Source: a virus
Taxonomy: Duplodnaviria > Heunggongvirae > Uroviricota > Caudoviricetes
IMG/VR virus record: IMGVR_UViG_2690316131_000019
DNA: 12,426 nt
Direction: 5' to 3' (one strand)
This document shows, piece after piece, positions 1,902-12,426 of this stretch (its first letter is position 1; the number at the start of each line of letters is the position of its first letter). Below the pieces are notes generated by a model. It saw only the letters and a program-made list of their open reading frames with translations, was not told the origin of the DNA and did no database searches. Made by a program: the position numbers and the translations under genes.

Positions 1902-2519
1902 TTAGCATGATTCAGGGGAAACCCCAATATTAAATATGAGTGTCTCCCCTGAATCAGCATAATAATGTAATATTATTGACTTACGTTGTTTTCTTGCTTC
2001 GTAGAATAAACGCTCTTGCGGCGATAATTTGTGAAAACTGCCGGATGCACAATATATGTTTTTTAACTTTTCGCGGGTTTCTTTTATTGTATCTTCTGAT
2101 ATGTATTTTAGGTATTTATCCGTATAGATGTTGCTACTATAAGAAATTAATGTTTTGCTGTTGTTGTGATGTATTGTATTTTTATCGTTGAAGTCTGTAT
2201 TTTTATTTACTGTCATTAGGTTTTTAATGATTACATGTAATACAATAGTCTCCCCATCATCAATTCCATATTTGATGTCATAGTCAGTATATTTATTTGT
2301 TATACCGTTTCCTGATAGCGGCACTATGTACTCTGAGAAAAATGAGTTTGCCGCGTGACTATCAAGAGCAATAGCAGTTTGTTTGTGGTAAAAATAAAAC
2401 AATATTGAGAGAGTCAAAATAATAGCGACGCCTAATGCAACCTTTAATATAGATATGGTTTTCAAAATATCGCTCCTTGTTGTAACATACATCAGTAATG
2501 TGGCGTTTTTCAATTGCAT
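1902..2519 (-). CDS. AT-rich membrane-anchored protein of unknown function, possible superinfection-exclusion-type moron
   Basis: 205-codon ORF at about 30% GC, much lower than flanking late genes. Strongly hydrophobic N-terminal segment (ILKTISILKVALGVAIILTLSILFYFY) followed by a polar Asn/Lys/Tyr-rich domain. Lies between the ejection gene and the mnt-like gene, where P22 carries sieA. No convincing Shine-Dalgarno at either candidate start (2519 or 2492), so the start is uncertain. Confidence 0.4.
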   Translation of the reverse strand: MQLKNATLLMYVTTRSDILKTISILKVALGVAIILTLSILFYFYHKQTAIALDSHAANSFFSEYIVPLSGNGITNKYTDYDIKYGIDDGETIVLHVIIKNLMTVNKNTDFNDKNTIHHNNSKTLISYSSNIYTDKYLKYISEDTIKETREKLKNIYCASGSFHKLSPQERLFYEARKQRKSIILHYYADSGETLIFNIGVSPESC

Positions 2520-3107: not shown

Positions 3108-3275
3108 ATGCAAAAAGCAAAAGAGATGTGTCAACGACGAGTTCGTTTTCCGGACGATGTGAAGTTAGCTATTGAAAGAAATGGCGAAAAAGAATGCCGA
3201 AAGTTCAATACAGAGATTATCTATCAGCTGAGGAAAGTGTATGGACTCACTGGTGAGAAGAATAGCGTGGCATAA
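3108..3275 (+). CDS. arc: Arc-like ribbon-helix-helix repressor
   Basis: 55-codon ORF with AGGAG (3096-3100) 7 nt before the ATG at 3108. Sequence QRRVRFPDDVKLAIERNGEKECRKFNTEIIYQLRKVYG has the Arc-type beta-strand/helix pattern (recalled P22 Arc: FNLRWPREVLDLVRKVAEENGRSVNSEIYQRV). Divergent from the mnt-like gene and directly upstream of the ant-like gene, as in P22 immI. Confidence 0.6.
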   Translation: MQKAKEMCQRRVRFPDDVKLAIERNGEKECRKFNTEIIYQLRKVYGLTGEKNSVA

Positions 3276-3347
3276 AACAGCGAAGCCCCACGGTGGCCAG
3301 ACCGTCAGGGCTTCAGTATCGTAAAACTACGTATAGGAATTAACGAC
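3272..3347 (-). ncRNA. sar: Candidate sar-like antisense RNA covering the ant ribosome-binding site
   Basis: Minus-strand promoter inside the 5' end of ant: TTGATA (rc of 3377-3382), 17-bp spacer, TATACT (rc of 3354-3359), predicting a start near 3347. Minus-strand terminator hairpin (stem 3282-3288 / 3308-3314) followed by GCUGUUUUAU in the arc-ant spacer. Predicted ~75-nt transcript is antisense to the ant SD (AGGAA 3335-3339); by recollection P22 sar is about 69 nt and similarly placed. Confidence 0.4.
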
Positions 3348-4286
3348 ATGACGAGTATAGCAACAGCAGTATCTACTATCAACGTGCCATTCCACGGCGC
3401 AGAGCTTTATGTTGTCAATCACAACGGCGAACCGTATACCCCAATGAAACCTATCGTTGAGGGAATGGGGCTAGACTGGAAATCTCAACATAAGAAGATT
3501 TCTCAACGCTTCTCGAAGGGTATGGTGGAAATCACCATACCTTCTGCCGGTGGGGGGCAAGCCATGATTTGTATGGCTTTACGAAAATTGGCAGCTTGGT
3601 TGAACAGCATCAGCCCTAACAAAGTCCGCCCTGAAATCCGCGACAAGGTAATCCAGTATCAGGAAGAGTGTGACGATGTGCTCTACGAGTACTGGACTAA
3701 AGGCCATGTGGTTAACCCACGCAAAGCTAAAAAGGCGTTGCCGGGTAAAATAACAACTGAACAGCAGGAAGCCATTAAACAACTCGTCATGAGTCGCGGT
3801 CAGTCTCTGCCAAAAGAAAAACAGGCTAAGGCGATGATCACCATGTGGTCGTCACTGAAATCTCATTTTGGCTGTTCGTACAAAGAAATTGGTGAAGATC
3901 AATTTGCCGAAGCGTTGTCTCTTGTTGCTCGGGTTCCGCTTGAAGGGGAGTATCTCCCTGCTGGATCTGCATCAGAGAATGATGAAGTGGCAGTCAAGAT
4001 GTTAGATGCGCTTCGTGAGGCAATTAAAACACAGACAAAATGTTATGGTTATCCATTGAAGCCAGGCTACCGCAGTCTGATTCATTCGCCGTCGGGTGTT
4101 CTCGGCCTGACGGAGAACTCACTGCTGATGAATCTGCTGAACCAGTTACAGGAAGACGGGCACGACGTATCGGGCGCGGCGGCGGAGCTGACCACCATGT
4201 TCTGCTACATCGTCGGTGTGAGCAAATGCCTGCGTGATATCCAGACGCACGCGGAGTACATCAACGACAAGGCTGGGTTCTTCTGA
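3348..4286 (+). CDS. ant: Phage antirepressor (P22 Ant-like: N-terminal Ant domain plus conserved C-terminal module)
   Basis: 312-codon ORF with AGGAA SD 8 nt upstream of the ATG. N-terminus (SIATAVSTINVPFHGAELYVVNHNGEPYTPMKPIVEGMGLDW) resembles P22 Ant-type antirepressor N-domains. Lies downstream of arc as in P22. The C-terminal ~78 aa are nearly identical to the C-terminus of the 5460..6170 product. Confidence 0.7.
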   Translation: MTSIATAVSTINVPFHGAELYVVNHNGEPYTPMKPIVEGMGLDWKSQHKKISQRFSKGMVEITIPSAGGGQAMICMALRKLAAWLNSISPNKVRPEIRDKVIQYQEECDDVLYEYWTKGHVVNPRKAKKALPGKITTEQQEAIKQLVMSRGQSLPKEKQAKAMITMWSSLKSHFGCSYKEIGEDQFAEALSLVARVPLEGEYLPAGSASENDEVAVKMLDALREAIKTQTKCYGYPLKPGYRSLIHSPSGVLGLTENSLLMNLLNQLQEDGHDVSGAAAELTTMFCYIVGVSKCLRDIQTHAEYINDKAGFF

Positions 4287-4304
4287 CGGGCGGCGGCACA
4301 GGGA
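4050..4304. repeat. Left arm of a ~255-bp inverted repeat (3' end of ant plus 18 bp past its stop)
   Basis: The reverse complement of 5444..5698 matches 4050..4304 with only a few mismatches by manual alignment, including the stop codon and the downstream TGACGGGCGGCGGCACAG. Confidence 0.85.
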
Positions 4305-4335
4305 CGTGCAAAACGAAACTAGCGTGACATGTCAC

Positions 4336-4360
4336 AGGCCGCTTTCGCGGCCTTGTTTTT
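4336..4360 (+). terminator. Rho-independent terminator downstream of ant
   Basis: Stem AGGCCGC (4336-4342), loop TTTC, stem GCGGCCT (4347-4353), then TGTTTTT. Immediately preceded by a perfect 12-bp palindrome GTGACATGTCAC (4324-4335). Confidence 0.6.
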
Positions 4361-4520
4361 AACGAATGCCACCGCCGCCTGGGCGGGAATCCGCAGAACG
4401 CCCACCGCAGCGTGAGCCGTCAGCAGCAGTGTCGCTGTCGTGCTGACAACGACCGGCAAAGGCCTGAGTTGAAGCTACCAGAGACAACAAAACGAACAGT
4501 GCAGCAAATGCTTTTTTCAT
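4359..4520 (-). CDS. Small predicted secreted peptide (53 aa precursor, about 31 aa mature, two Cys)
   Basis: ATG at 4520 gives MKKAFAALFVLLSLVASTQAFA-GRCQHDSDTAADGSRCGGRSADSRPGGGGIR, with a classical signal peptide and AXA cleavage site. SD is weak (GGAA) and the mature part is GC-rich and low-complexity, so coding status is uncertain. The ORF track's 88-aa version starts at 4625 with no SD. Confidence 0.3.
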   Translation of the reverse strand: MKKAFAALFVLLSLVASTQAFAGRCQHDSDTAADGSRCGGRSADSRPGGGGIR

Positions 4521-4612
4521 TGTGAAATTTCCATCTATAAGCCACCTCAATGTGGCGTCAATGAGTGTAGCACTGACTTTTGTTTCGTCCACAAAAAAGC
4601 CTGCGCTGCGGA

Positions 4613-5158
4613 CTATTCCTTCCATTTATCAGAAAAAAGATCTTCTTCTAAAGGCATTGGTTCTGTTTTTGTTTTCTCAAAGAATTGATAACTGATAGTG
4701 ATTGCTTCCTCTTTAAACTCTTCTTGCTCAGTTATGTTGTGAGCATCTGCGTCAACAAAAAACATAACCAGCGCATCACGATTGTGATTTACCGAATAAA
4801 CTAAAAAGCAATCACTTGTTGGTATGCATTTTACTTGTACAGACGCTATATTTTTCCATGCATCCCAAGATGATTTTTTACCAGTGTGTTTTTTATCACT
4901 ATCTTCTGGAATATAGTCTTGGTTATCGACATGAGTATGCCTGACATTTAGTTTAAGCATTTCTGTCGGACGAGCAAATGCAGCATCTTTACCAAGAGAT
5001 GGATGATATCCCGTTTTCCAATACTGGGCAAAGGCATCAGATACTTTCTTCAGCTCAAGATCAGATGCACAAAGGGCCGAGAAATTTTGCGTATGCAATA
5101 CTCGACCCTTATATCTGACAATTTGATTTTTATCATTCTGCGACGCAGACGAACTCAT
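4613..5158 (-). CDS. YafO-like toxin-domain protein (candidate ribosome-dependent mRNA interferase / abortive-infection effector)
   Basis: 181-codon ORF starting at the ATG at 5158 with AAGGAAA SD. The central region (GKDAAFARPTEMLKLNVRHTHV ... TSDCFLVYSVNHNRDALVMFFV) resembles the recalled conserved YafO blocks (GRDALYDDSF..FERVAHIHL ... DEAHLVYCQ..AWLLIAIL). AT-rich relative to the flanking repeats. Assignment is from memory, not a search. Confidence 0.4.
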   Translation of the reverse strand: MSSSASQNDKNQIVRYKGRVLHTQNFSALCASDLELKKVSDAFAQYWKTGYHPSLGKDAAFARPTEMLKLNVRHTHVDNQDYIPEDSDKKHTGKKSSWDAWKNIASVQVKCIPTSDCFLVYSVNHNRDALVMFFVDADAHNITEQEEFKEEAITISYQFFEKTKTEPMPLEEDLFSDKWKE

Positions 5159-5312
5159 AATTTTCCTTATTGTTACGAGAATCAAAGAAAGCGCGGGATA
5201 CGCGACTTGCGTGATCTTTTGTCATAGTAACTTTTACGTACTCTACGCTTCCATTGAAAGAACGTCTTGCGGCAGCTTGCGCTCTACGCATCTGCAATTT
5301 TTCGTTTCGCAT
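5133..5312 (-). CDS. Small basic ORF (59 aa) overlapping the start of the YafO-like gene; possible cognate partner or regulator
   Basis: ATG at 5312 is preceded by GAGGT with 6-nt spacing. Hand translation gives MRNEKLQMRRAQAAARRSFNGSVEYVKVTMTKDHASRVSRAFFDSRNNKENYEFVCVAE, ending 26 nt inside the downstream gene. It falls just below the 60-aa cutoff of the ORF track. No recognised family. Confidence 0.2.
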   Translation of the reverse strand: MRNEKLQMRRAQAAARRSFNGSVEYVKVTMTKDHASRVSRAFFDSRNNKENYEFVCVAE

Positions 5313-5443
5313 GACATTACCTCATATCTCATAAGTTCATTACACGGATTAATAAAAATGAAACCAATCCGTTTACCCTTGAGGTAATAGTACGCTATTC
5401 ACCCACAGTCTGCAATCTGTACAGAATTATTTAAAGGCACATC

Positions 5444-5698
5444 TCTGTGCCGCCGCCCGTCAGAAGAATCCTGCTTTGTCGTTGATGTACTCCGCGTGCG
5501 TCTGGATATCACGCAGGCATTTGCTCACACCGACGATGTAGCAGAACATGGTGGTCAGTTCCGCCGCCGCGCCCGATACGTCGTGCCCGTCGTCCTGTAA
5601 CTGGTTCAGCAGATTCATCAGCAGTGAGTTCTCCGTCAGGCCGAGAACACCAGACGGCGAGTGAATCAGGCTGCGGTAGCCGGGCTTCAGTGGGGCAC
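5444..5698. repeat. Right arm of the ~255-bp inverted repeat (3' end of the Bro-N antirepressor gene plus 16-18 bp past its stop)
   Basis: Reverse complement aligns with 4050..4304 at roughly 95% or better identity by eye. Confidence 0.85.
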
Positions 5699-6170
5699 TG
5701 TAGGTTTTGTTCTCTATCTTCATTGCCTGTATTACTGCTGACGCCGTGGCGTTGGCTACCTGGTCGGCAACCATCTTTATGCGTTCTTCCTGCGGGAGCG
5801 AGTTTTTAATGTAACTTCCGGTGCGGCGGATCTGAGGAAGAACCTCACCTGTAACCCATTTACGAAAGCGGTAGGGGATAGTGCCTGGTGTCACCGCATC
5901 GCGGCAGCGGAGGATCAGTGTGTAGAGGCCTGACTCGGAGATGATGTTGATCTCTTTTACTCGGCTGTCAAAAATTGCACGATGTTCATGCCCTATGTTG
6001 AACATAGACCTTTCATCATCATCCAGTTTTTCAAGTGATTGGGTGACGTTTTGGATACGCAGCGCACTACAAACGTCTTGGGCTACAAACCATGGTTGGC
6101 CATCGATAATGATGGAACGGATAGGGTTAACAGATTCAAATTTGAAGATGGCAGTTTGAGCATTAGCCAT
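5460..6170 (-). CDS. Antirepressor with Bro-N-type N-terminal domain and the shared Ant C-terminal module
   Basis: 236-codon ORF from the ATG at 6170, with GGAG 9 nt upstream; the ORF track extends to a GTG at 6185. N-terminus FKFESVNPIRSIIIDGQPWFVAQDVCSALRIQNVTQSLEKLDDDER is a typical Bro-N / phage antirepressor N-domain. The C-terminal 78 aa match the ant C-terminus. Confidence 0.7.
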   Translation of the reverse strand: MANAQTAIFKFESVNPIRSIIIDGQPWFVAQDVCSALRIQNVTQSLEKLDDDERSMFNIGHEHRAIFDSRVKEINIISESGLYTLILRCRDAVTPGTIPYRFRKWVTGEVLPQIRRTGSYIKNSLPQEERIKMVADQVANATASAVIQAMKIENKTYSAPLKPGYRSLIHSPSGVLGLTENSLLMNLLNQLQDDGHDVSGAAAELTTMFCYIVGVSKCLRDIQTHAEYINDKAGFF

Positions 6171-6321
6171 GGTGGTTATCTCCACTTAGTGATTTTAATC
6201 ACCACCGCAACGCCAATTACTGGTGGTGAACTGGACAAGGTTGGCGTACCGGCCTAAGTGGTACCGGCGTCCTTTCGGACCCCTGCCCAGCCCACCATAA
6301 TTCGGATATGGCTGTGCTTAA

Positions 6322-6354
6322 CGCATAAAAAAACCACGTCTGGCGTGGTATGCG
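6322..6354 (-). terminator. Rho-independent terminator for minus-strand transcription from the LexA-controlled gene
   Basis: On the minus strand: stem CCACG, loop CCAGA, stem CGTGG (6334-6348), followed by UUUUUUU (6327-6333). An outer CGCAT/ATGCG pairing (6322-6326 / 6350-6354) is also possible. Confidence 0.5.
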
Positions 6355-6485
6355 CCACTTAGTAACTCGGGACGCCAATCCCGGCACTGGATTTTGCCAG
6401 TACCCGATTACTATGGCACAAGAGGAGTGCGATGTAAATTTACCTCAAAGGTAAATATAAGCACTCCACTTGGTAATTGCAAACC

Positions 6486-6743
6486 TTATCTGGTTTGTTT
6501 TCGTAATTGTTCGGCACAATAGTCGAGATGTGTTTGCAGATCCTGCATAGACATCTGTGAGCTGGTGACGTAGTTAATCAGTGCAGTCAGTTCGGCAAGT
6601 GGGCCATCGACATTAAATCCATCCTTATCGAGATCCCGGAGTAATTTCATCAAGAGCGATCCCTCCACCAGTGATCTGACGCCTCCCGGCGTGTGAATCC
6701 TTTCGGTAAATCCGTCTTCCAGTGGATAGTGATACTGCTGCAT
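6486..6743 (-). CDS. Small stand-alone antirepressor-like protein (85 aa), a free copy of the Ant C-terminal module
   Basis: ATG at 6743 with GGAGAAG SD. The product (..HTPGGVRSLVEGSLLMKLLRDLDKDGFNVDGPLAELTALINYVTSSQMSMQDLQTHLDY..) aligns with the shared C-terminal module of the two larger antirepressors (HSPSGVLGLTENSLLMNLLNQLQEDGHDVSGAAAELTTMFCYIVGVSKCLRDIQTHAEY) at roughly 40-45% identity by eye. Confidence 0.55.
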   Translation of the reverse strand: MQQYHYPLEDGFTERIHTPGGVRSLVEGSLLMKLLRDLDKDGFNVDGPLAELTALINYVTSSQMSMQDLQTHLDYCAEQLRKQTR

Positions 6744-6762: not shown

Positions 6763-6782
6763 AACTGTACAAATATACAGTA
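6763..6782. promoter_or_regulatory. LexA (SOS) box just upstream of the small antirepressor-like gene
   Basis: AACTGTACAAATATACAGTA matches the consensus TACTGT(AT)4ACAGTA; CTGT-N8-ACAG is intact at 6765-6780. It lies about 8 nt upstream of the SD of the minus-strand gene that starts at 6743. Confidence 0.6.
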
Positions 6783-6938: not shown

Positions 6939-9227
6939 ATGACGGTCTCAACCGAAGTTGACCACAACGAATACACAGGTAACGGTGTTACGACATCATT
7001 TCCGTATACCTTCAGGATTTTCCAGAAATCTGATCTGGTAGTACAAGTGGTTGACCTTGATGAAAATATCACTGTTCTTGCTCTTGATACTGATTACACA
7101 GTTACCGGGGCGGGAGGATATAACGGTGGTAATGTAATTCTGTCGAAGGTGTTGGCTAACGGTTATCTGATTTCTATATATCGAGAGCTACCGGTTACGC
7201 AGGAAACTGATTTGCGTAATCAGGGTAAGTTCTTTGCAGAAGTGCATGAGAACGCTTTTGATAAGCTAACGATGCTGATCCAGCAGGTTCGAAATTGGTT
7301 CAGTCTGGCGCTACGAAAGCCGTCGTTCGTGGCTAATTATTACGACGCGATGAATAACTATATTCGTAATCTTCGTGACCCATCTAGGCCGCAAGATGCA
7401 GCAACGAAAAATTATGTTGACGGGCTTGCAGAAACAAACCTGAGCAGAACGCTACGAACTCCCGAACCGATATCAACTTTGCCCGGCGTTGAGCAACGTA
7501 AGAATAAGATTGTTGCAATGGATGATTCAGGGAACCCACTCATGGTTCTCCCGGAATCAGGTTCTGCATCTGATGTTATGATCGAGTTAGCAAAGCCAAC
7601 AGGGGCTAGTTTGATTAATACTAAAGATGGAGAAAATCTACAACTTAAAATTAATAAAATACCTCCCCTTTATGCTGAGGAGTTTGGTGATCTTACTGGA
7701 TTTGATGTTACTGACATATTTCAACATGCTATTGATACTGCATCTGCTCAATGCCGTGAATTAAGAGTAAGGACGCAAATTATAAATGTTAGGCAACTCA
7801 AACTCCCTAACAATACTATTTTAAATCTAGGCGTTTGTACTTTAAGGCAAATATCTAATACAAATAAGCCATTAATCAGGAATGATGTATTTGGATATGC
7901 GGATAAAGTTCATACAAACTTAAATATTACCATTATTGATGGGATTCTTGATTTTAATGGTTCAAACCAGTCTGACACTACGGCAACAGGAGAAGTTAAT
8001 GTCGGCTGTGCATTTTTTGGGGTGAAAGGCCTTCATTTTCGTGGCTCAACAAAATTCATTAATGCCAGACGTTATAGTTTTTTTGCTGCAAATTGTGCAA
8101 ACATTACTTTTGATGATCCGGTTGTTGAAAACGACCCGGAAATACCAAGTAGTAATAAAGATGGCTTACATTTTTGCGGAAAAATTTACGGTATTTCAAT
8201 AAAAAGTATTTATGTTTATAACCCAGAAGATGATGCACTAGCTATAAATGCTGATGATGTAGATCATGGTGGGGAATGGACTCGCGCTAACATTACTGGA
8301 GCAATAGATAATGTTTGGGTTGGGCAAGTTCGTGTGGATGGTCCTTCATCGCATAACGGTGTGCGTTTGCTAAGTGCGTCCCCCAACACCCCTATTTCAA
8401 ATGTGAAAATTGATTCAATTGTAGGTAAAGTAGATAATTATTTTCTTAATATTCAACCATACGGTTTAGGTACTTCATCGGTATACCACAATATTGATAT
8501 CGGAATTATAGGAGGAATATATTCTGTCAGAACCAATCCTGCATTTACTCATGGCATGGTAAATATCTACACTATGAAGCCGAACCCAGCAGTTTTGAAT
8601 AATATTCATATTGGTCAGATTTTTCGTGATCAGGAAATTGGCGATGGACAGGATCGTCCGACTGTACAGTTATGTGTTGAAAACACTTCTGTTACATTTG
8701 ATAAAATTGTCGAGCAGAATTGTGCTAATGATGCTGTCGTTAGGGTAACGGAGATAGGACCTTCGGCTTTTATAACTCTAAACGAAGCATACAAAAAATC
8801 CACCCGAACCTTAACTCCTGGTGTGTATGGTTCCATCGTAATTGTAAGTAATGTTAACGACAATCAACTTGAACACCTTAAAATTGGATTCAATTCTGCA
8901 GATAGACTACGTCACGTTGTATTGGCAAGGTCTGTAAAAATTAAACGTTTAGATATGTTTAGTGATGGTTCAGCAGACAATATCCCTCTGTATCTTGAAT
9001 CATCCCAGGTAACTAATCTGAATTGGAATAGTAGTGTTACATCCACTTATCAATTTACTGCACACCGCTATACGCTTTCAGGTGAATCGTCTGCTGTAAT
9101 ATTTGAACGCCCTGCTGTTACAGGTGGGAGTACTGCAGAACGTCCAGTAAATGCAATAATTGGTGACAGTTTCTATGATACAACAACGAATACTCGTGTG
9201 AACTGGAATGGTAGTGCTTGGGTTTAA
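6939..9227 (+). CDS. Tailspike / tail fibre protein with conserved N-terminal particle-binding domain and C-terminal beta-helix receptor-binding (probable polysaccharide depolymerase) domain
   Basis: 762-codon ORF with GGAG SD. The N-terminal ~150 aa (EYTGNGVTTSFPYTFRIFQKSDLVVQVVD...DTDYTV) fit the T7 gp17 / epsilon15-type tailspike anchor pattern as recalled. The downstream part is AT-rich with repetitive N/G/I/V-rich segments typical of a right-handed beta-helix. Confidence 0.8.
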   Translation: MTVSTEVDHNEYTGNGVTTSFPYTFRIFQKSDLVVQVVDLDENITVLALDTDYTVTGAGGYNGGNVILSKVLANGYLISIYRELPVTQETDLRNQGKFFAEVHENAFDKLTMLIQQVRNWFSLALRKPSFVANYYDAMNNYIRNLRDPSRPQDAATKNYVDGLAETNLSRTLRTPEPISTLPGVEQRKNKIVAMDDSGNPLMVLPESGSASDVMIELAKPTGASLINTKDGENLQLKINKIPPLYAEEFGDLTGFDVTDIFQHAIDTASAQCRELRVRTQIINVRQLKLPNNTILNLGVCTLRQISNTNKPLIRNDVFGYADKVHTNLNITIIDGILDFNGSNQSDTTATGEVNVGCAFFGVKGLHFRGSTKFINARRYSFFAANCANITFDDPVVENDPEIPSSNKDGLHFCGKIYGISIKSIYVYNPEDDALAINADDVDHGGEWTRANITGAIDNVWVGQVRVDGPSSHNGVRLLSASPNTPISNVKIDSIVGKVDNYFLNIQPYGLGTSSVYHNIDIGIIGGIYSVRTNPAFTHGMVNIYTMKPNPAVLNNIHIGQIFRDQEIGDGQDRPTVQLCVENTSVTFDKIVEQNCANDAVVRVTEIGPSAFITLNEAYKKSTRTLTPGVYGSIVIVSNVNDNQLEHLKIGFNSADRLRHVVLARSVKIKRLDMFSDGSADNIPLYLESSQVTNLNWNSSVTSTYQFTAHRYTLSGESSAVIFERPAVTGGSTAERPVNAIIGDSFYDTTTNTRVNWNGSAWV

Positions 9228-11136: not shown

Positions 11137-11289
11137 CATGGCATTTTTCATGGTACTGATTTCCGGTGACGGTATATAAAACGGTACTAAAAAAATGAGG
11201 TTTTGGAAAAATGTTATCACTCAATTGGTTATGGCTTCCGTAAATAATTGAGTGGGAATGATTTTAATCCCTGCACTATGAATGAACAA

Positions 11290-11355: not shown

Positions 11356-11895
11356 TTAATTAAACCAGCTGTCCGATTTGTTCTCTTCTGCTTTGCCCAC
11401 GCTTTTCATCAGATCGCGACCGCCTTCAGTCATATTTCTGTTGGCGTCAGCTTCAGATTGCACCACATCGGTTTGCGCAGCTTTGTGCTTCAGTTCCTGA
11501 TCGATAAATTCGTTTTCTCGCTTAACGCGGGCTTCTTCTTTTGCCAGCGCCAGTTTTTGTTTCTGAATCTCTAAGCTGCGTAGCTCATCTTCATAACTTT
11601 GATCGCGTTTTTTGTCCGCAGAGGCTTCGGCGTCCAGTTTATCCTGACGAGCTTTCTTATTTGCCGCTGCCGTTGCCGCTCTTTTGTTAGCGGCGGCCTG
11701 GGCATTTGCGCGACGTTGCTTCTCTTGCTGGATTTCCCTGTTGCGCTCCGCGACCCATTCGTCATGCTGCCTTTGCTCTTCATTTTTACCTTGCTGTTCA
11801 GCTTCTGCTACAGCAGAGAGTTGATCCTGCAATGATGAGGCGATAGCCGGATAGCTTAAGGAGGCCAAGATGGCGCAAAGAAAAACTTTCTTCAT
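11356..11895 (-). CDS. Secreted, highly charged coiled-coil-like protein of unknown function
   Basis: 179-codon ORF with a classical signal peptide (MKKVFLCAILASLSYPAIA-SS) followed by Lys/Glu/Ala/Gln-rich low-complexity sequence. Confidence 0.5.
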   Translation of the reverse strand: MKKVFLCAILASLSYPAIASSLQDQLSAVAEAEQQGKNEEQRQHDEWVAERNREIQQEKQRRANAQAAANKRAATAAANKKARQDKLDAEASADKKRDQSYEDELRSLEIQKQKLALAKEEARVKRENEFIDQELKHKAAQTDVVQSEADANRNMTEGGRDLMKSVGKAEENKSDSWFN

Positions 11896-11910
11896 GACTC
11901 CTCCTGATTA

Positions 11911-12426
11911 TTAGCTCTTTTCAGGACATTTAGTATTTGGCTGAATACGCGTTTCGTTATACGTTGTGGTAATAACAACGGCTAAACCTGTCGTAAACTG
12001 GCACTCTTTACCCACCTGGGTAGAGGTATACACTTTGGTGCCTTCCTTATATGTTAAAGAAACACCTTCCACTAAGGTTTTATCATTCACCATAGAACCC
12101 ACTGCCGCGCCTACAGCTCCGCCGCCAACTGCCCCTGCCGTCGTTCCGGAATTGCTGCCAGAACCGACGTTGTGGCCGATAACACCGCCAGCGACTGCGC
12201 CAATAAGCGCGCCGAAGGCTTGTGCGTTCCGTTTATTTTGGGAGTTGTCTACGGCAACTTTTGCGGGAAGAATGGAAATAATATTAACGGTTTTAGTTTC
12301 TTGTTTGGTATTCAGTTGATCGGTTTGATAAACATCGGCGGCATGATCGTCAGCATTTGACTGGCATCCTGCCAGAGTGAATGACGCTAACATTGCCACA
12401 GGCAGAAGACATTTTTTAAATTTCAT
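11911..12426 (-). CDS. Outer-membrane lipoprotein of the glycine-zipper (SlyB/Pcp, YcfJ-like) family
   Basis: Lipobox (LASFTLAGC) and a central Gly-zipper (GALIGAVAGGVIGHNVGSG...GAVGGGAVGAAVGS) closely resembling recalled E. coli YcfJ (GSVLGAVAGGVIGHQFGGG) and SlyB. The start codon is the last three bases of the window. Confidence 0.6.
   Translation of the reverse strand: MKFKKCLLPVAMLASFTLAGCQSNADDHAADVYQTDQLNTKQETKTVNIISILPAKVAVDNSQNKRNAQAFGALIGAVAGGVIGHNVGSGSNSGTTAGAVGGGAVGAAVGSMVNDKTLVEGVSLTYKEGTKVYTSTQVGKECQFTTGLAVVITTTYNETRIQPNTKCPEKS

Follow-up and report, generated by a model that had tools for sequence, protein, structure and literature searches.

An inverted repeat flanking a variable accessory-gene slot in phiV10/epsilon15-like prophages, best read as the footprint of a shared antirepressor domain

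The DNA analyzed here is a stretch of 12,426 nucleotides from a virus of the Caudoviricetes (IMG/VR record IMGVR_UViG_2690316131_000019), referred to throughout as the window. It contains two convergent antirepressor genes, ant and a Bro-N antirepressor gene, whose 3′ ends form a long inverted repeat around a short cassette of accessory genes (the cargo, or payload). The nearest phage records are TL-2011b and phiV10 (Uetakevirus, epsilon15 group), and the slot that holds the cargo lies in an E. coli phiV10/epsilon15-like prophage. We consider it probable that the repeat is the footprint of a protein domain shared by the two genes, that the segment between its arms is a slot with expression signals whose payload is exchanged by homologous recombination in any conserved flank, and that the antirepressor tails occasionally flip the cassette. 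The genes and repeat arms concerned are as follows.

3348–4286, plus strand: ant, with a P22_AR_N N-terminal domain (Pfam, 7.6e-45) and a C-terminal domain resembling Ant of phage SPC32H.
4053–4309, plus strand: left arm of the inverted repeat, comprising the last 234 nt of ant including the stop codon and 23 nt beyond.
5437–5693, minus strand: right arm of the inverted repeat, made up of the final 234 nt of the Bro-N gene (stop codon included) and 23 nt beyond.
5460–6170/6185, minus strand: Bro-N antirepressor gene, with a Bro-N domain (Pfam, 3.9e-19) and an SPC32H-Ant-like C-terminal domain.
6486–6743, minus strand: stand-alone 85-aa antirepressor gene, orthologue of SPC32H Ant and epsilon15 gp19 (full-length match to 5D50_E; phrog_450).

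A repeat search of the window returned a single long inverted repeat, with arms at 4018–4309 and 5437–5728 (292 nt, 91% identity). By alignment and direct count, the near-identical core pairs 4053–4309 with 5437–5693 over 257 nt with 12 mismatches (95.3% identity). Because the runner-up inverted repeat is 28 nt long at 75% identity, the arm repeat is far above chance. Ten of the mismatches fall in the 234 coding nucleotides of the core, the rest of which is the 23 nt past each stop codon. Only one of the ten coding differences alters an amino acid (E/D) and nine are silent, a ratio suggesting that the tail domain is under strong purifying selection. Upstream of 4053, about 35 nt of the two genes can still be aligned at ∼65% identity, as against ∼95% downstream of that position. 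Identical stretches inside the arms reach 83 nt. The GC fraction is ∼0.58 in the arms, ∼0.45–0.5 in neighbouring genes and 0.35–0.41 in the cargo (0.38). The sequence-only reading of this DNA had described near-identical inverted arms of ∼255 bp made of antirepressor 3′ ends, and had proposed their identity as a check; repeat search and alignment bore out both the arms and their high identity. Its estimate of ∼235 bp of coding sequence also held, while the 16–18 bp it placed beyond each stop codon had to be extended to 23 nt.

The arms appear to encode the repressor-binding output domain of two fusion antirepressors. In a sequence search of the PDB, chain E of entry 5D50 (an 86-aa “Anti-repressor protein”) matched residues 231–307 of ant (E 6.5e-14), residues 155–231 of the Bro-N protein (E 2.2e-13) and the entire length of the 85-aa ORF (E 1.5e-45), which is a third, diverged copy of the arm domain. 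PHROGs likewise places the tail and the small 85-aa ORF together (phrog_450, 15539 and 1760). The primary papers on the SPC32H Rep-Ant system are reportedly those of Kim and Ryu (2013, J Virol) and Kim et al. (2016, PNAS). Entry 5D50 is the Rep-Ant complex of Salmonella phage SPC32H, in which the 86-aa Ant binds the phage repressor Rep and breaks up the Rep tetramer (the antirepression system is summarized in PMC9638917). In the related Uetakevirus vB_EcoP_ZX5, overexpression of a Bro-N anti-repressor promoted the lytic cycle (PMC9782041). By analogy, the fused tails of ant and the Bro-N protein would bind Rep, whose gene falls outside the window. The likeness to SPC32H Ant extends, for the 85-aa ORF, over its full length and to a preceding LexA box, and the arms encode a domain of the same fold size; in contrast to SPC32H Ant, the domain in the arm-bearing genes is fused behind Bro-N or P22_AR_N, and these genes would be controlled by antisense RNA (c4/isrK or sar) instead of by LexA. 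Since the two fused genes are convergent and their common domain is conserved, the domain reads as a 257-bp inverted repeat. The repeat is thus best read as a by-product of paralogous antirepressors with one output domain, not as a dedicated device.

Related loci (L numbers below) were gathered in three sets: annotated loci from complete E. coli genomes together with phage records, 69 IMG/VR stretches containing an arm 39-mer, and at least 120 IMG/VR stretches containing a k-mer of the small Ant gene. Sampling was therefore seeded by arm and small-Ant k-mers. These loci bear on whether one tail was recently copied onto the other gene by intragenomic duplication or gene conversion. The sharp step in identity at 4053 (∼65% to ∼95%) and the similarity running 23 nt past the stop codons are what such copying would leave behind. 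However, among 34 distinct two-arm loci the mean identity of arms was 95.57% within a genome versus 95.59% between genomes, and 39% of partner shuffles in a permutation test reached the observed mean. There is no within-genome homogenization, and concerted evolution of the arms is rejected. The left arm of the window is nearer to the right arms of other genomes (97.6%) than to its own right arm (95.3%), and the accumulated differences are largely silent (9 of 10 in coding sequence). Recent copying is accordingly very improbable. The arms are drawn from one well-mixed allele pool and are kept alike by selection at the protein level, rather than being copies of each other, as expected if the repeat is the footprint of a shared domain.

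The segment between the arms contains the following features, all of which agree with the contents given by the sequence-only reading (terminator, palindrome, signal-peptide ORF, YafO-like gene and basic ORF, AT-rich and on the minus strand) or were added in the comparison of loci.

4324–4335, no strand: 12-bp palindrome GTGACATGTCAC, adjoining the terminator (read in the sequence).
4336–4360, no strand: terminator hairpin AGGCCGC-TTTC-GCGGCCT (4336–4353) followed by TGTTTTT (terminator scan).
4359–4520, minus strand: 53-aa ORF, signal-peptide or membrane-associated (phrog_14503 “membrane associated protein”, 2.3e-40).
4593–4613, minus strand: terminator-like hairpin plus T6 that directly follows the stop codon of the cargo and delimits the variable part on the left (recognized by comparing cargo 3′ ends across classes).
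4613–5158, minus strand: cargo gene for a 181-aa protein with a distant YafO_toxin domain, a putative toxin (Pfam PF13957, 26.3 bits versus a cut-off of 25; phrog_1651).
5133–5312, minus strand: cargo gene for a 59-aa basic protein, a putative antitoxin (ORF list; phrog_6685, function unknown).
5373–5436, minus strand: R64, a promoter-like element of 64 nt, conserved, that separates the cargo from the Bro-N stop region and delimits the variable part on the right.

DNA matching the slot and its flanks is present in ∼540 of 5,426 complete E. coli genomes, and the annotated cargo at the slot differs among complete genomes. When segments of the window were mapped onto 166 loci, three architectures were distinguished: (I) ant on the left, as in the window; (II) a second Bro-type gene on the left; and (III) no left arm, with the late operon running straight into the same terminator, as in phiV10 and many others. 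Eleven cargo classes were found among 94 related cassettes, a number that depends on clustering thresholds. These are the YafO-like pair of the window (17 loci), DUF4760 (15), a 210-aa protein (15), a 146-aa plus 55-aa pair (11), a class whose longest ORF is 108 aa (10), a 125-aa plus 72-aa pair (8), DUF2335 (7), a 288-aa membrane protein (7) and three rare classes. Ten payload proteins from 8 of the 11 classes were scanned against Pfam and two had a family above threshold (YafO_toxin and DUF4760); the DUF2335 label is taken from RefSeq annotation of related loci. The proposals that the inter-arm segment is a cargo slot, and that comparison of related prophages would reveal varying cargo, were both borne out, and the orientation of the cargo is occasionally flipped as well.

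Loci with other cargo are homologous to the window as far as 4397, 4604 or 4614 and again from 5372–5375 or 5418, so that the variable part appears to extend from ∼4605/4615 to 5372 and is narrower than the arm-to-arm interval. It is bounded on the left by a conserved terminator and small-ORF block (4310–4604) and on the right by R64 (5373–5436). Because segment 4310–4604 stays 96–100% identical in nearly all loci with different cargo (80% in the divergent locus L050), the 53-aa ORF that it holds was counted as flank and would not be part of the swapped cargo. The hairpin at 4336–4360 can form on both strands, its minus-strand form being followed by a U-rich stretch, and it sits where the directions of transcription converge. 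The equivalent site in phiV10 is annotated as a terminator, and the hairpin probably works both ways. On the minus strand, the palindrome GTGACATGTCAC lengthens the terminator stem. It occurs in 134 of 182 loci, as a single copy in each except L144 (three copies), and is found even in phages without ant, the Bro-N gene or cargo. Homology to phages without ant starts at ∼4321–4323.

At the cargo-proximal left boundary, the payload stop codon abuts a stem-loop of the form GCCCGC-N3-GCGGGC-T6 in nearly all cargo classes. At the right boundary, R64, read the way the cargo is transcribed, contains TTGCAG-17-TACTAT and, after it, the palindrome TTACC-N5-GGTAA. It is kept beside most cargo classes in two main alleles, of which allele b reads TTGGCG-18-TAATAT, and the ribosome-binding site and start codon of the payload lie within a few tens of bases after it. 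R64 is therefore treated as a putative promoter, a call that rests on its conservation and not on consensus strength. In a search of all phage records, R64 was present solely in this phiV10/TL-2011b-like phage family.

These boundaries bear on the strong form of the sequence-only reading, in which the tails are homology arms that define the slot and the cassette is exchanged from arm to arm. The tails do appear to act as recombination joints. They are 93–98% conserved over all loci and N-terminal modules. At least eight N-terminal modules bear the same tail (several Bro-N variants, P22_AR_N, AntA/AntB and ORF6N), a given cargo adjoins six to eight different N-terminal antirepressor modules, and a table of cargo class against N-terminal module shows near free association, which requires crossovers in or near the tail. 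The window, too, has a mosaic structure, matching L004 and L007 at 100% identity up to ∼4100 and L077 and L180 at ∼100% from ∼4400 rightwards, which places the junction in the arm and small-ORF region. On the other hand, the breakpoints between cargo classes lie at R64 and the small-ORF block, not at the arm ends, and all common cargo classes were seen both with and without the left arm. Because phages that lack ant and have the right arm alone hold the same cargo classes, the left homology there being the terminator and small-ORF block, the inverted repeat would neither define the slot nor be needed for exchange. What survives of the idea of a recombination-defined slot is thus the use of the tails as joints; the limits of the variable part lie inside the arm ends and single-arm phages are equally varied, and exchange strictly from arm to arm is in our estimate unlikely. 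Exchange through any of the conserved flanks, with the repeat as a domain footprint, accommodates both sets of observations.

The repeat could also serve inversion, and the sequence-only reading had noted that its length would suffice. A first query for an inverted junction included the YafO cargo; no E. coli genome spans it, and it was set aside as blind to flips of other cargo. A cargo-independent query was built from the unique part of ant, the arm and the reverse complement of R64. The inverted junction, with R64 beside the ant arm, was found in 2 of 36 complete E. coli genomes that have this ant. In SCU-387 (L182, NZ_CP051688), a 1579-nt arm-cassette-arm block is reversed relative to 2016C04-116 (L006) at 99.05% identity, with collinear flanks. 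In ETEC1749 (L181, NZ_CP122712.1), an inverted cargo of the 146/55-aa class beside ant abuts a normally oriented YafO cargo near the Bro-N gene. The slot of ETEC1749 (5354–7410 of L181) thus holds two payloads tail to tail, and its small-ORF/terminator block is missing. A third case, L040, is an IMG/VR piece of TL-2011b-type sequence in which the cassette is flipped relative to arc-ant. Along its ant-side arm, ant-type variants give way to Bro-type ones close to the 3′ end, the pattern expected of a crossover within the arm. The exact toxin protein of the window was in the usual orientation in 10 of 10 contexts among the matches listed.

Larger inversions were also seen. In loci with two Bro-type genes, a c4 control region lies on either side, and the two make up an inverted repeat that is larger and more diverged. 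The whole unit (c4 region, Bro gene, cassette, Bro gene, c4 region) is flipped relative to the injection-protein and tailspike genes in L123, L102, L089 and L167 as compared with L028, L108, L166 and L168. A query combining the reverse complement of the small ORF, the arm and Bro-N was rejected, its matches being ordinary two-Bro loci or such whole-unit flips rather than arm-to-arm inversions. Because Bro types reassort freely, whole-unit and arm-to-arm flips are not always separable.

Could the natural inversions be assembly artefacts caused by the repeat? L040 comes from a draft-derived viral contig, identical arm stretches of up to 83 nt could mislead assemblers that use short k-mers, and a chimeric arm is also expected from a wrong path through the assembly graph. 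Against this, SCU-387 and ETEC1749 are RefSeq “complete genome” assemblies, the arms differ at ∼5% of positions so that ordinary reads separate them, and flips of the whole two-Bro unit were seen independently in several records. An artefactual origin of the flips is thus rather improbable. Inversion between the arms appears to be real but rare, and the expectation that the repeats could support it is matched by the natural flips of SCU-387 versus 2016C04-116 and of L040 versus TL-2011b.

Both cassette orientations were therefore seen in different genomes (consensus assemblies), and flipped cargo runs in the direction of ant instead of that of the Bro-N gene. These facts invite the proposal that the repeat is a functional invertible switch, in which a flip changes the antirepressor operon that co-transcribes the cargo and makes cargo expression phase-variable. 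The G segment of Mu and the C segment of P1 are invertible segments of this sort, driven by invertases (Hin/Gin/Cin). Like them, the present cassette is a gene-bearing segment between inverted repeats that occurs in both orientations in nature. Unlike them, it has no adjacent invertase gene, and no recombinase domain was found in any ORF of the region; its arms are 257 bp of coding sequence instead of short crossover sites; and its flips are rare and were seen between genomes. The arms also have no special crossover site and are not homogenized, the cargo appears to have a promoter-like element and terminator of its own, and the flips number 2 in 36 complete genomes and none in the 10 toxin contexts among the matches listed. 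We regard a dedicated switch as very improbable. Under the footprint reading, the flips are occasional products of general recombination between the tails.

The cargo of the window is likely a toxin-antitoxin pair with a distant YafO/RelE-like toxin. The 59-aa ORF overlaps the start of the toxin gene by 26 nt. Among 27 Enterobacterales homologues of the 181-aa protein, several are named YafO family toxin or have a YafO_toxin Pfam match, and RefSeq gives that name to close homologues. BLASTP of the 181-aa protein against YafO of E. coli K-12 was not significant (E 0.38), an NCBIfam scan gave no match and a sequence search of the PDB returned nothing. An AF2 model built with 23 homologues had a mean pLDDT of 58.9 with a disordered conserved centre; searched against the PDB with Foldseek, it retrieved nothing at E ≤ 0.001, the HigB2/RelE toxins ranking first without significance. 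The 59-aa ORF gave no alignment with K-12 YafN and no Pfam family above threshold, and it does not qualify as an upstream antitoxin of the YafN (Phd/YefM) type. Toxin-antitoxin function of the pair is accordingly putative. The suggestion that the cargo could include defence or exclusion genes finds no support here: PADLOC matched no defence model to the 10 payload proteins from 8 of the 11 classes; NCBIfam gave no matches for four payload proteins, the small ORF, the 85-aa Ant and the toxin pair of a second slot (described below); and the YafO assignment is marginal. Such a role is, at present, hypothetical.

The antirepressor genes are accompanied by the following control elements.

2556–2987/3017, minus strand: Arc-family gene (Pfam Arc domain).
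3108–3275: Arc-like small ORF (PHROGs).
3279–3346, minus strand: sar antisense RNA (P22 immI type), immediately upstream of ant (Rfam RF00262, E 5.5e-7, 44.8 bits with a gathering score of 43).
6219–6302, minus strand: C4 antisense RNA upstream of the Bro-N gene (Rfam, 66 bits against a gathering score of 45).
6327–6403, minus strand: isrK-like RNA upstream of the Bro-N gene (Rfam, 63.5 bits against a gathering score of 50).
6364–6416, minus strand: c4-a1b1 target upstream of the Bro-N gene (Rfam, 43.4 bits, below the gathering score of 46.7).
6765–6780: perfect LexA-box core CTGT-N8-ACAG, CTGTACAAATATACAG, ∼20 nt upstream of the 85-aa Ant gene (pattern search).

The position of sar between the Arc-like small ORF and ant completes an immI region of the P22 type (Arc-family gene, Arc-like ORF, sar, ant): Arc-family repressors, sar and a P22_AR_N antirepressor are present in the same order as in P22. 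Region 6219–6416 (minus strand) has the arrangement of P1 immI, with a C4 RNA and upstream a/b target sites before an antirepressor gene. The LexA-box core CTGTACAAATATACAG was the sole perfect match in a pattern search of the window, and no LexA box was found there ahead of the two fused antirepressor genes. Note that one match at up to one mismatch does not exceed the chance expectation, and it is the location of the box that carries the argument. With this box, the 85-aa gene looks like an SOS-inducible small antirepressor. One prophage would thus contain three antirepressor genes with a single output domain under three kinds of control (LexA, P1-type c4 RNA and P22-type Arc/sar).

Injection-protein ORF 1–1890 and the tailspike gene (6939–9227) flank the region, and this order is the same in all related loci. 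Between the injection-protein and Arc-family genes, at 1902–2465 (minus strand), lies a 187-aa ORF with a GC fraction of ∼0.30 and an N-terminal hydrophobic segment (phrog_8033, function unknown). P22 has sieA at the equivalent position, and this ORF may likewise serve lysogenic conversion or exclusion. The small Ant gene and the c4 region enclose a second variable slot. In the window this slot is empty (6485/6486 junction); elsewhere (L003 4650–5506, L008 5020–6113, L166 3130–4100) it is occupied by a 729-nt ORF or by a different YafO-family pair, whose toxin is 31% identical to that of the window and lies in opposite orientation. At the other end of the window, the att core ATTGAGTGGGAATGATT of phiV10 and epsilon15 (PMC9782041) is present as an exact copy at 11247–11263, within a 28-nt imperfect inverted repeat (11207–11265). 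Host-like lipoprotein genes follow at 11356–12426, and 11247–11263 marks the junction of prophage and chromosome.

The mechanism that we envisage is as follows. Read in its leftward direction of transcription, from right to left, the slot would consist of R64, one or two payload ORFs, the stem-loop terminator, the 53-aa peptide gene and the two-way terminator. Related phages would swap payloads through homologous recombination at any point of the conserved flanks, namely the tails, R64 and the small-ORF/terminator block. General recombination between the 257-bp, ∼95% identical inverted tails would occasionally flip the cassette. Since expression signals of its own seem to travel with the payload, flipping is probably nearly neutral. 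Recombination as the means of both exchange and flipping is what we infer from the distribution of breakpoints and orientations.

Several observations weigh against this account. R64 is weak as a promoter, with 7 of 12 consensus matches, and a promoter scan of the window returned nothing in it. The cargo-proximal terminator is degenerate in the window (GTCCGC-AGC-GCAGGC), the two stem mutations being common to the window and its 100%-identical relative L077, and the terminator scan of the window did not flag the copy at 4593–4613. With these two mutations, transcripts of the toxin pair may extend past the hairpin into the small ORF. Rep binding by the fused tails is a prediction from ∼40% identity to SPC32H Ant. 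L040 is partly visible, being cut 34 nt into its other arm, and could be an assembly error. Many IMG/VR loci are from draft assemblies and are partly redundant, and class counts should therefore be considered approximate. Finally, the near-identical boundaries of all cargo classes are not obviously explained by homologous recombination alone, and the first capture of each payload needs illegitimate recombination or another mechanism.

A bolder scheme can also be framed, to which we assign a very low probability. The tails, R64 and the terminator would together form a family-wide “expression socket”, into which unrelated payload ORFs would be swapped at the same boundaries to within a few nucleotides. 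Flips would couple the payload to the induction of either Bro-N (c4/isrK) or ant (Mnt/Arc/sar), and the payloads would be new superinfection-exclusion or anti-phage genes. Since R64 is confined to one phage family, the “socket” would not itself be mobile between families. The preferred reading is still a domain footprint with an ordinary accessory-gene slot.

As such, the slot is comparable to the “ant moron” of P22-like phages, which lies between gene 16 and tailspike gene 9 and is in rapid flux, with ten types in sixteen genomes, according to the passages of Villafane et al. (2008, PMC2629481) that deal with it. As described in those passages, the P22 locus has the same position between injection-protein and tailspike genes and combines a Mnt/Arc/sar/ant immunity module with accessory genes; an inverted repeat is not mentioned in them. 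It differs in that the host phage here is epsilon15/phiV10-like with three antirepressor genes bearing an SPC32H-type domain, and in that the payload here sits in a fixed promoter-like/terminator frame between convergent antirepressor genes. As is typical of a moron, the slot lies between conserved late-operon genes, its content varies among close relatives and its base composition differs. With respect to signals of its own, it has the promoter-like R64 (7/12, unreported by the scan) and a T6 stem-loop that is intact in relatives and degenerate in the window.

The bracketing of payloads by R64 and a conserved terminator also resembles what is described for two further systems, PeSLs and boundary sequences. 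The PeSLs of T4-type phages are reportedly “mobile regulatory cassettes” of promoter/stem-loop sequences that bracket unrelated ORFs (Arbiol et al., 2010). In contrast to PeSLs, the present case involves a temperate podophage with one slot, or two side by side, and no hyperplastic array. Lambdoid “boundary sequences” (reportedly described by Clark et al. in 2001) are, like PeSLs, short conserved sequences around unrelated ORFs, and both are proposed to mediate modular shuffling by homologous recombination. Phage CUS-3 has a “boundary sequence” feature annotated next to ant. The defence hotspots of P2/P4 prophages and satellites, reportedly described by Rousset et al. in 2022, offer a last comparison. 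They share with this slot a fixed place between conserved genes, many alternative AT-rich accessory genes and toxin-antitoxin-like cargo, and differ from it in that the 10 payloads scanned here (8 of 11 classes) matched no PADLOC defence model. The literature on DUF4760, and that on Uetakevirus with antirepressor or YafO, yielded no previous description of the slot.

If the footprint reading is correct, a striking sequence feature would be explained by a shared repressor-binding domain, with no special DNA device needed. The accessory hotspot of phiV10/TL-2011b-like prophages would be delimited to within a few nucleotides, with at least 11 alternative payloads. Most of the payload proteins scanned had no Pfam family above threshold, and the set offers a short list from which to screen for anti-phage or lysogenic-conversion functions. 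The two tails would illustrate how a 257-bp repeat of 95% identity can support rare inversion of prophage DNA in nature, and the three antirepressors, with one output domain and three input circuits, would be a useful case for the integration of induction signals.

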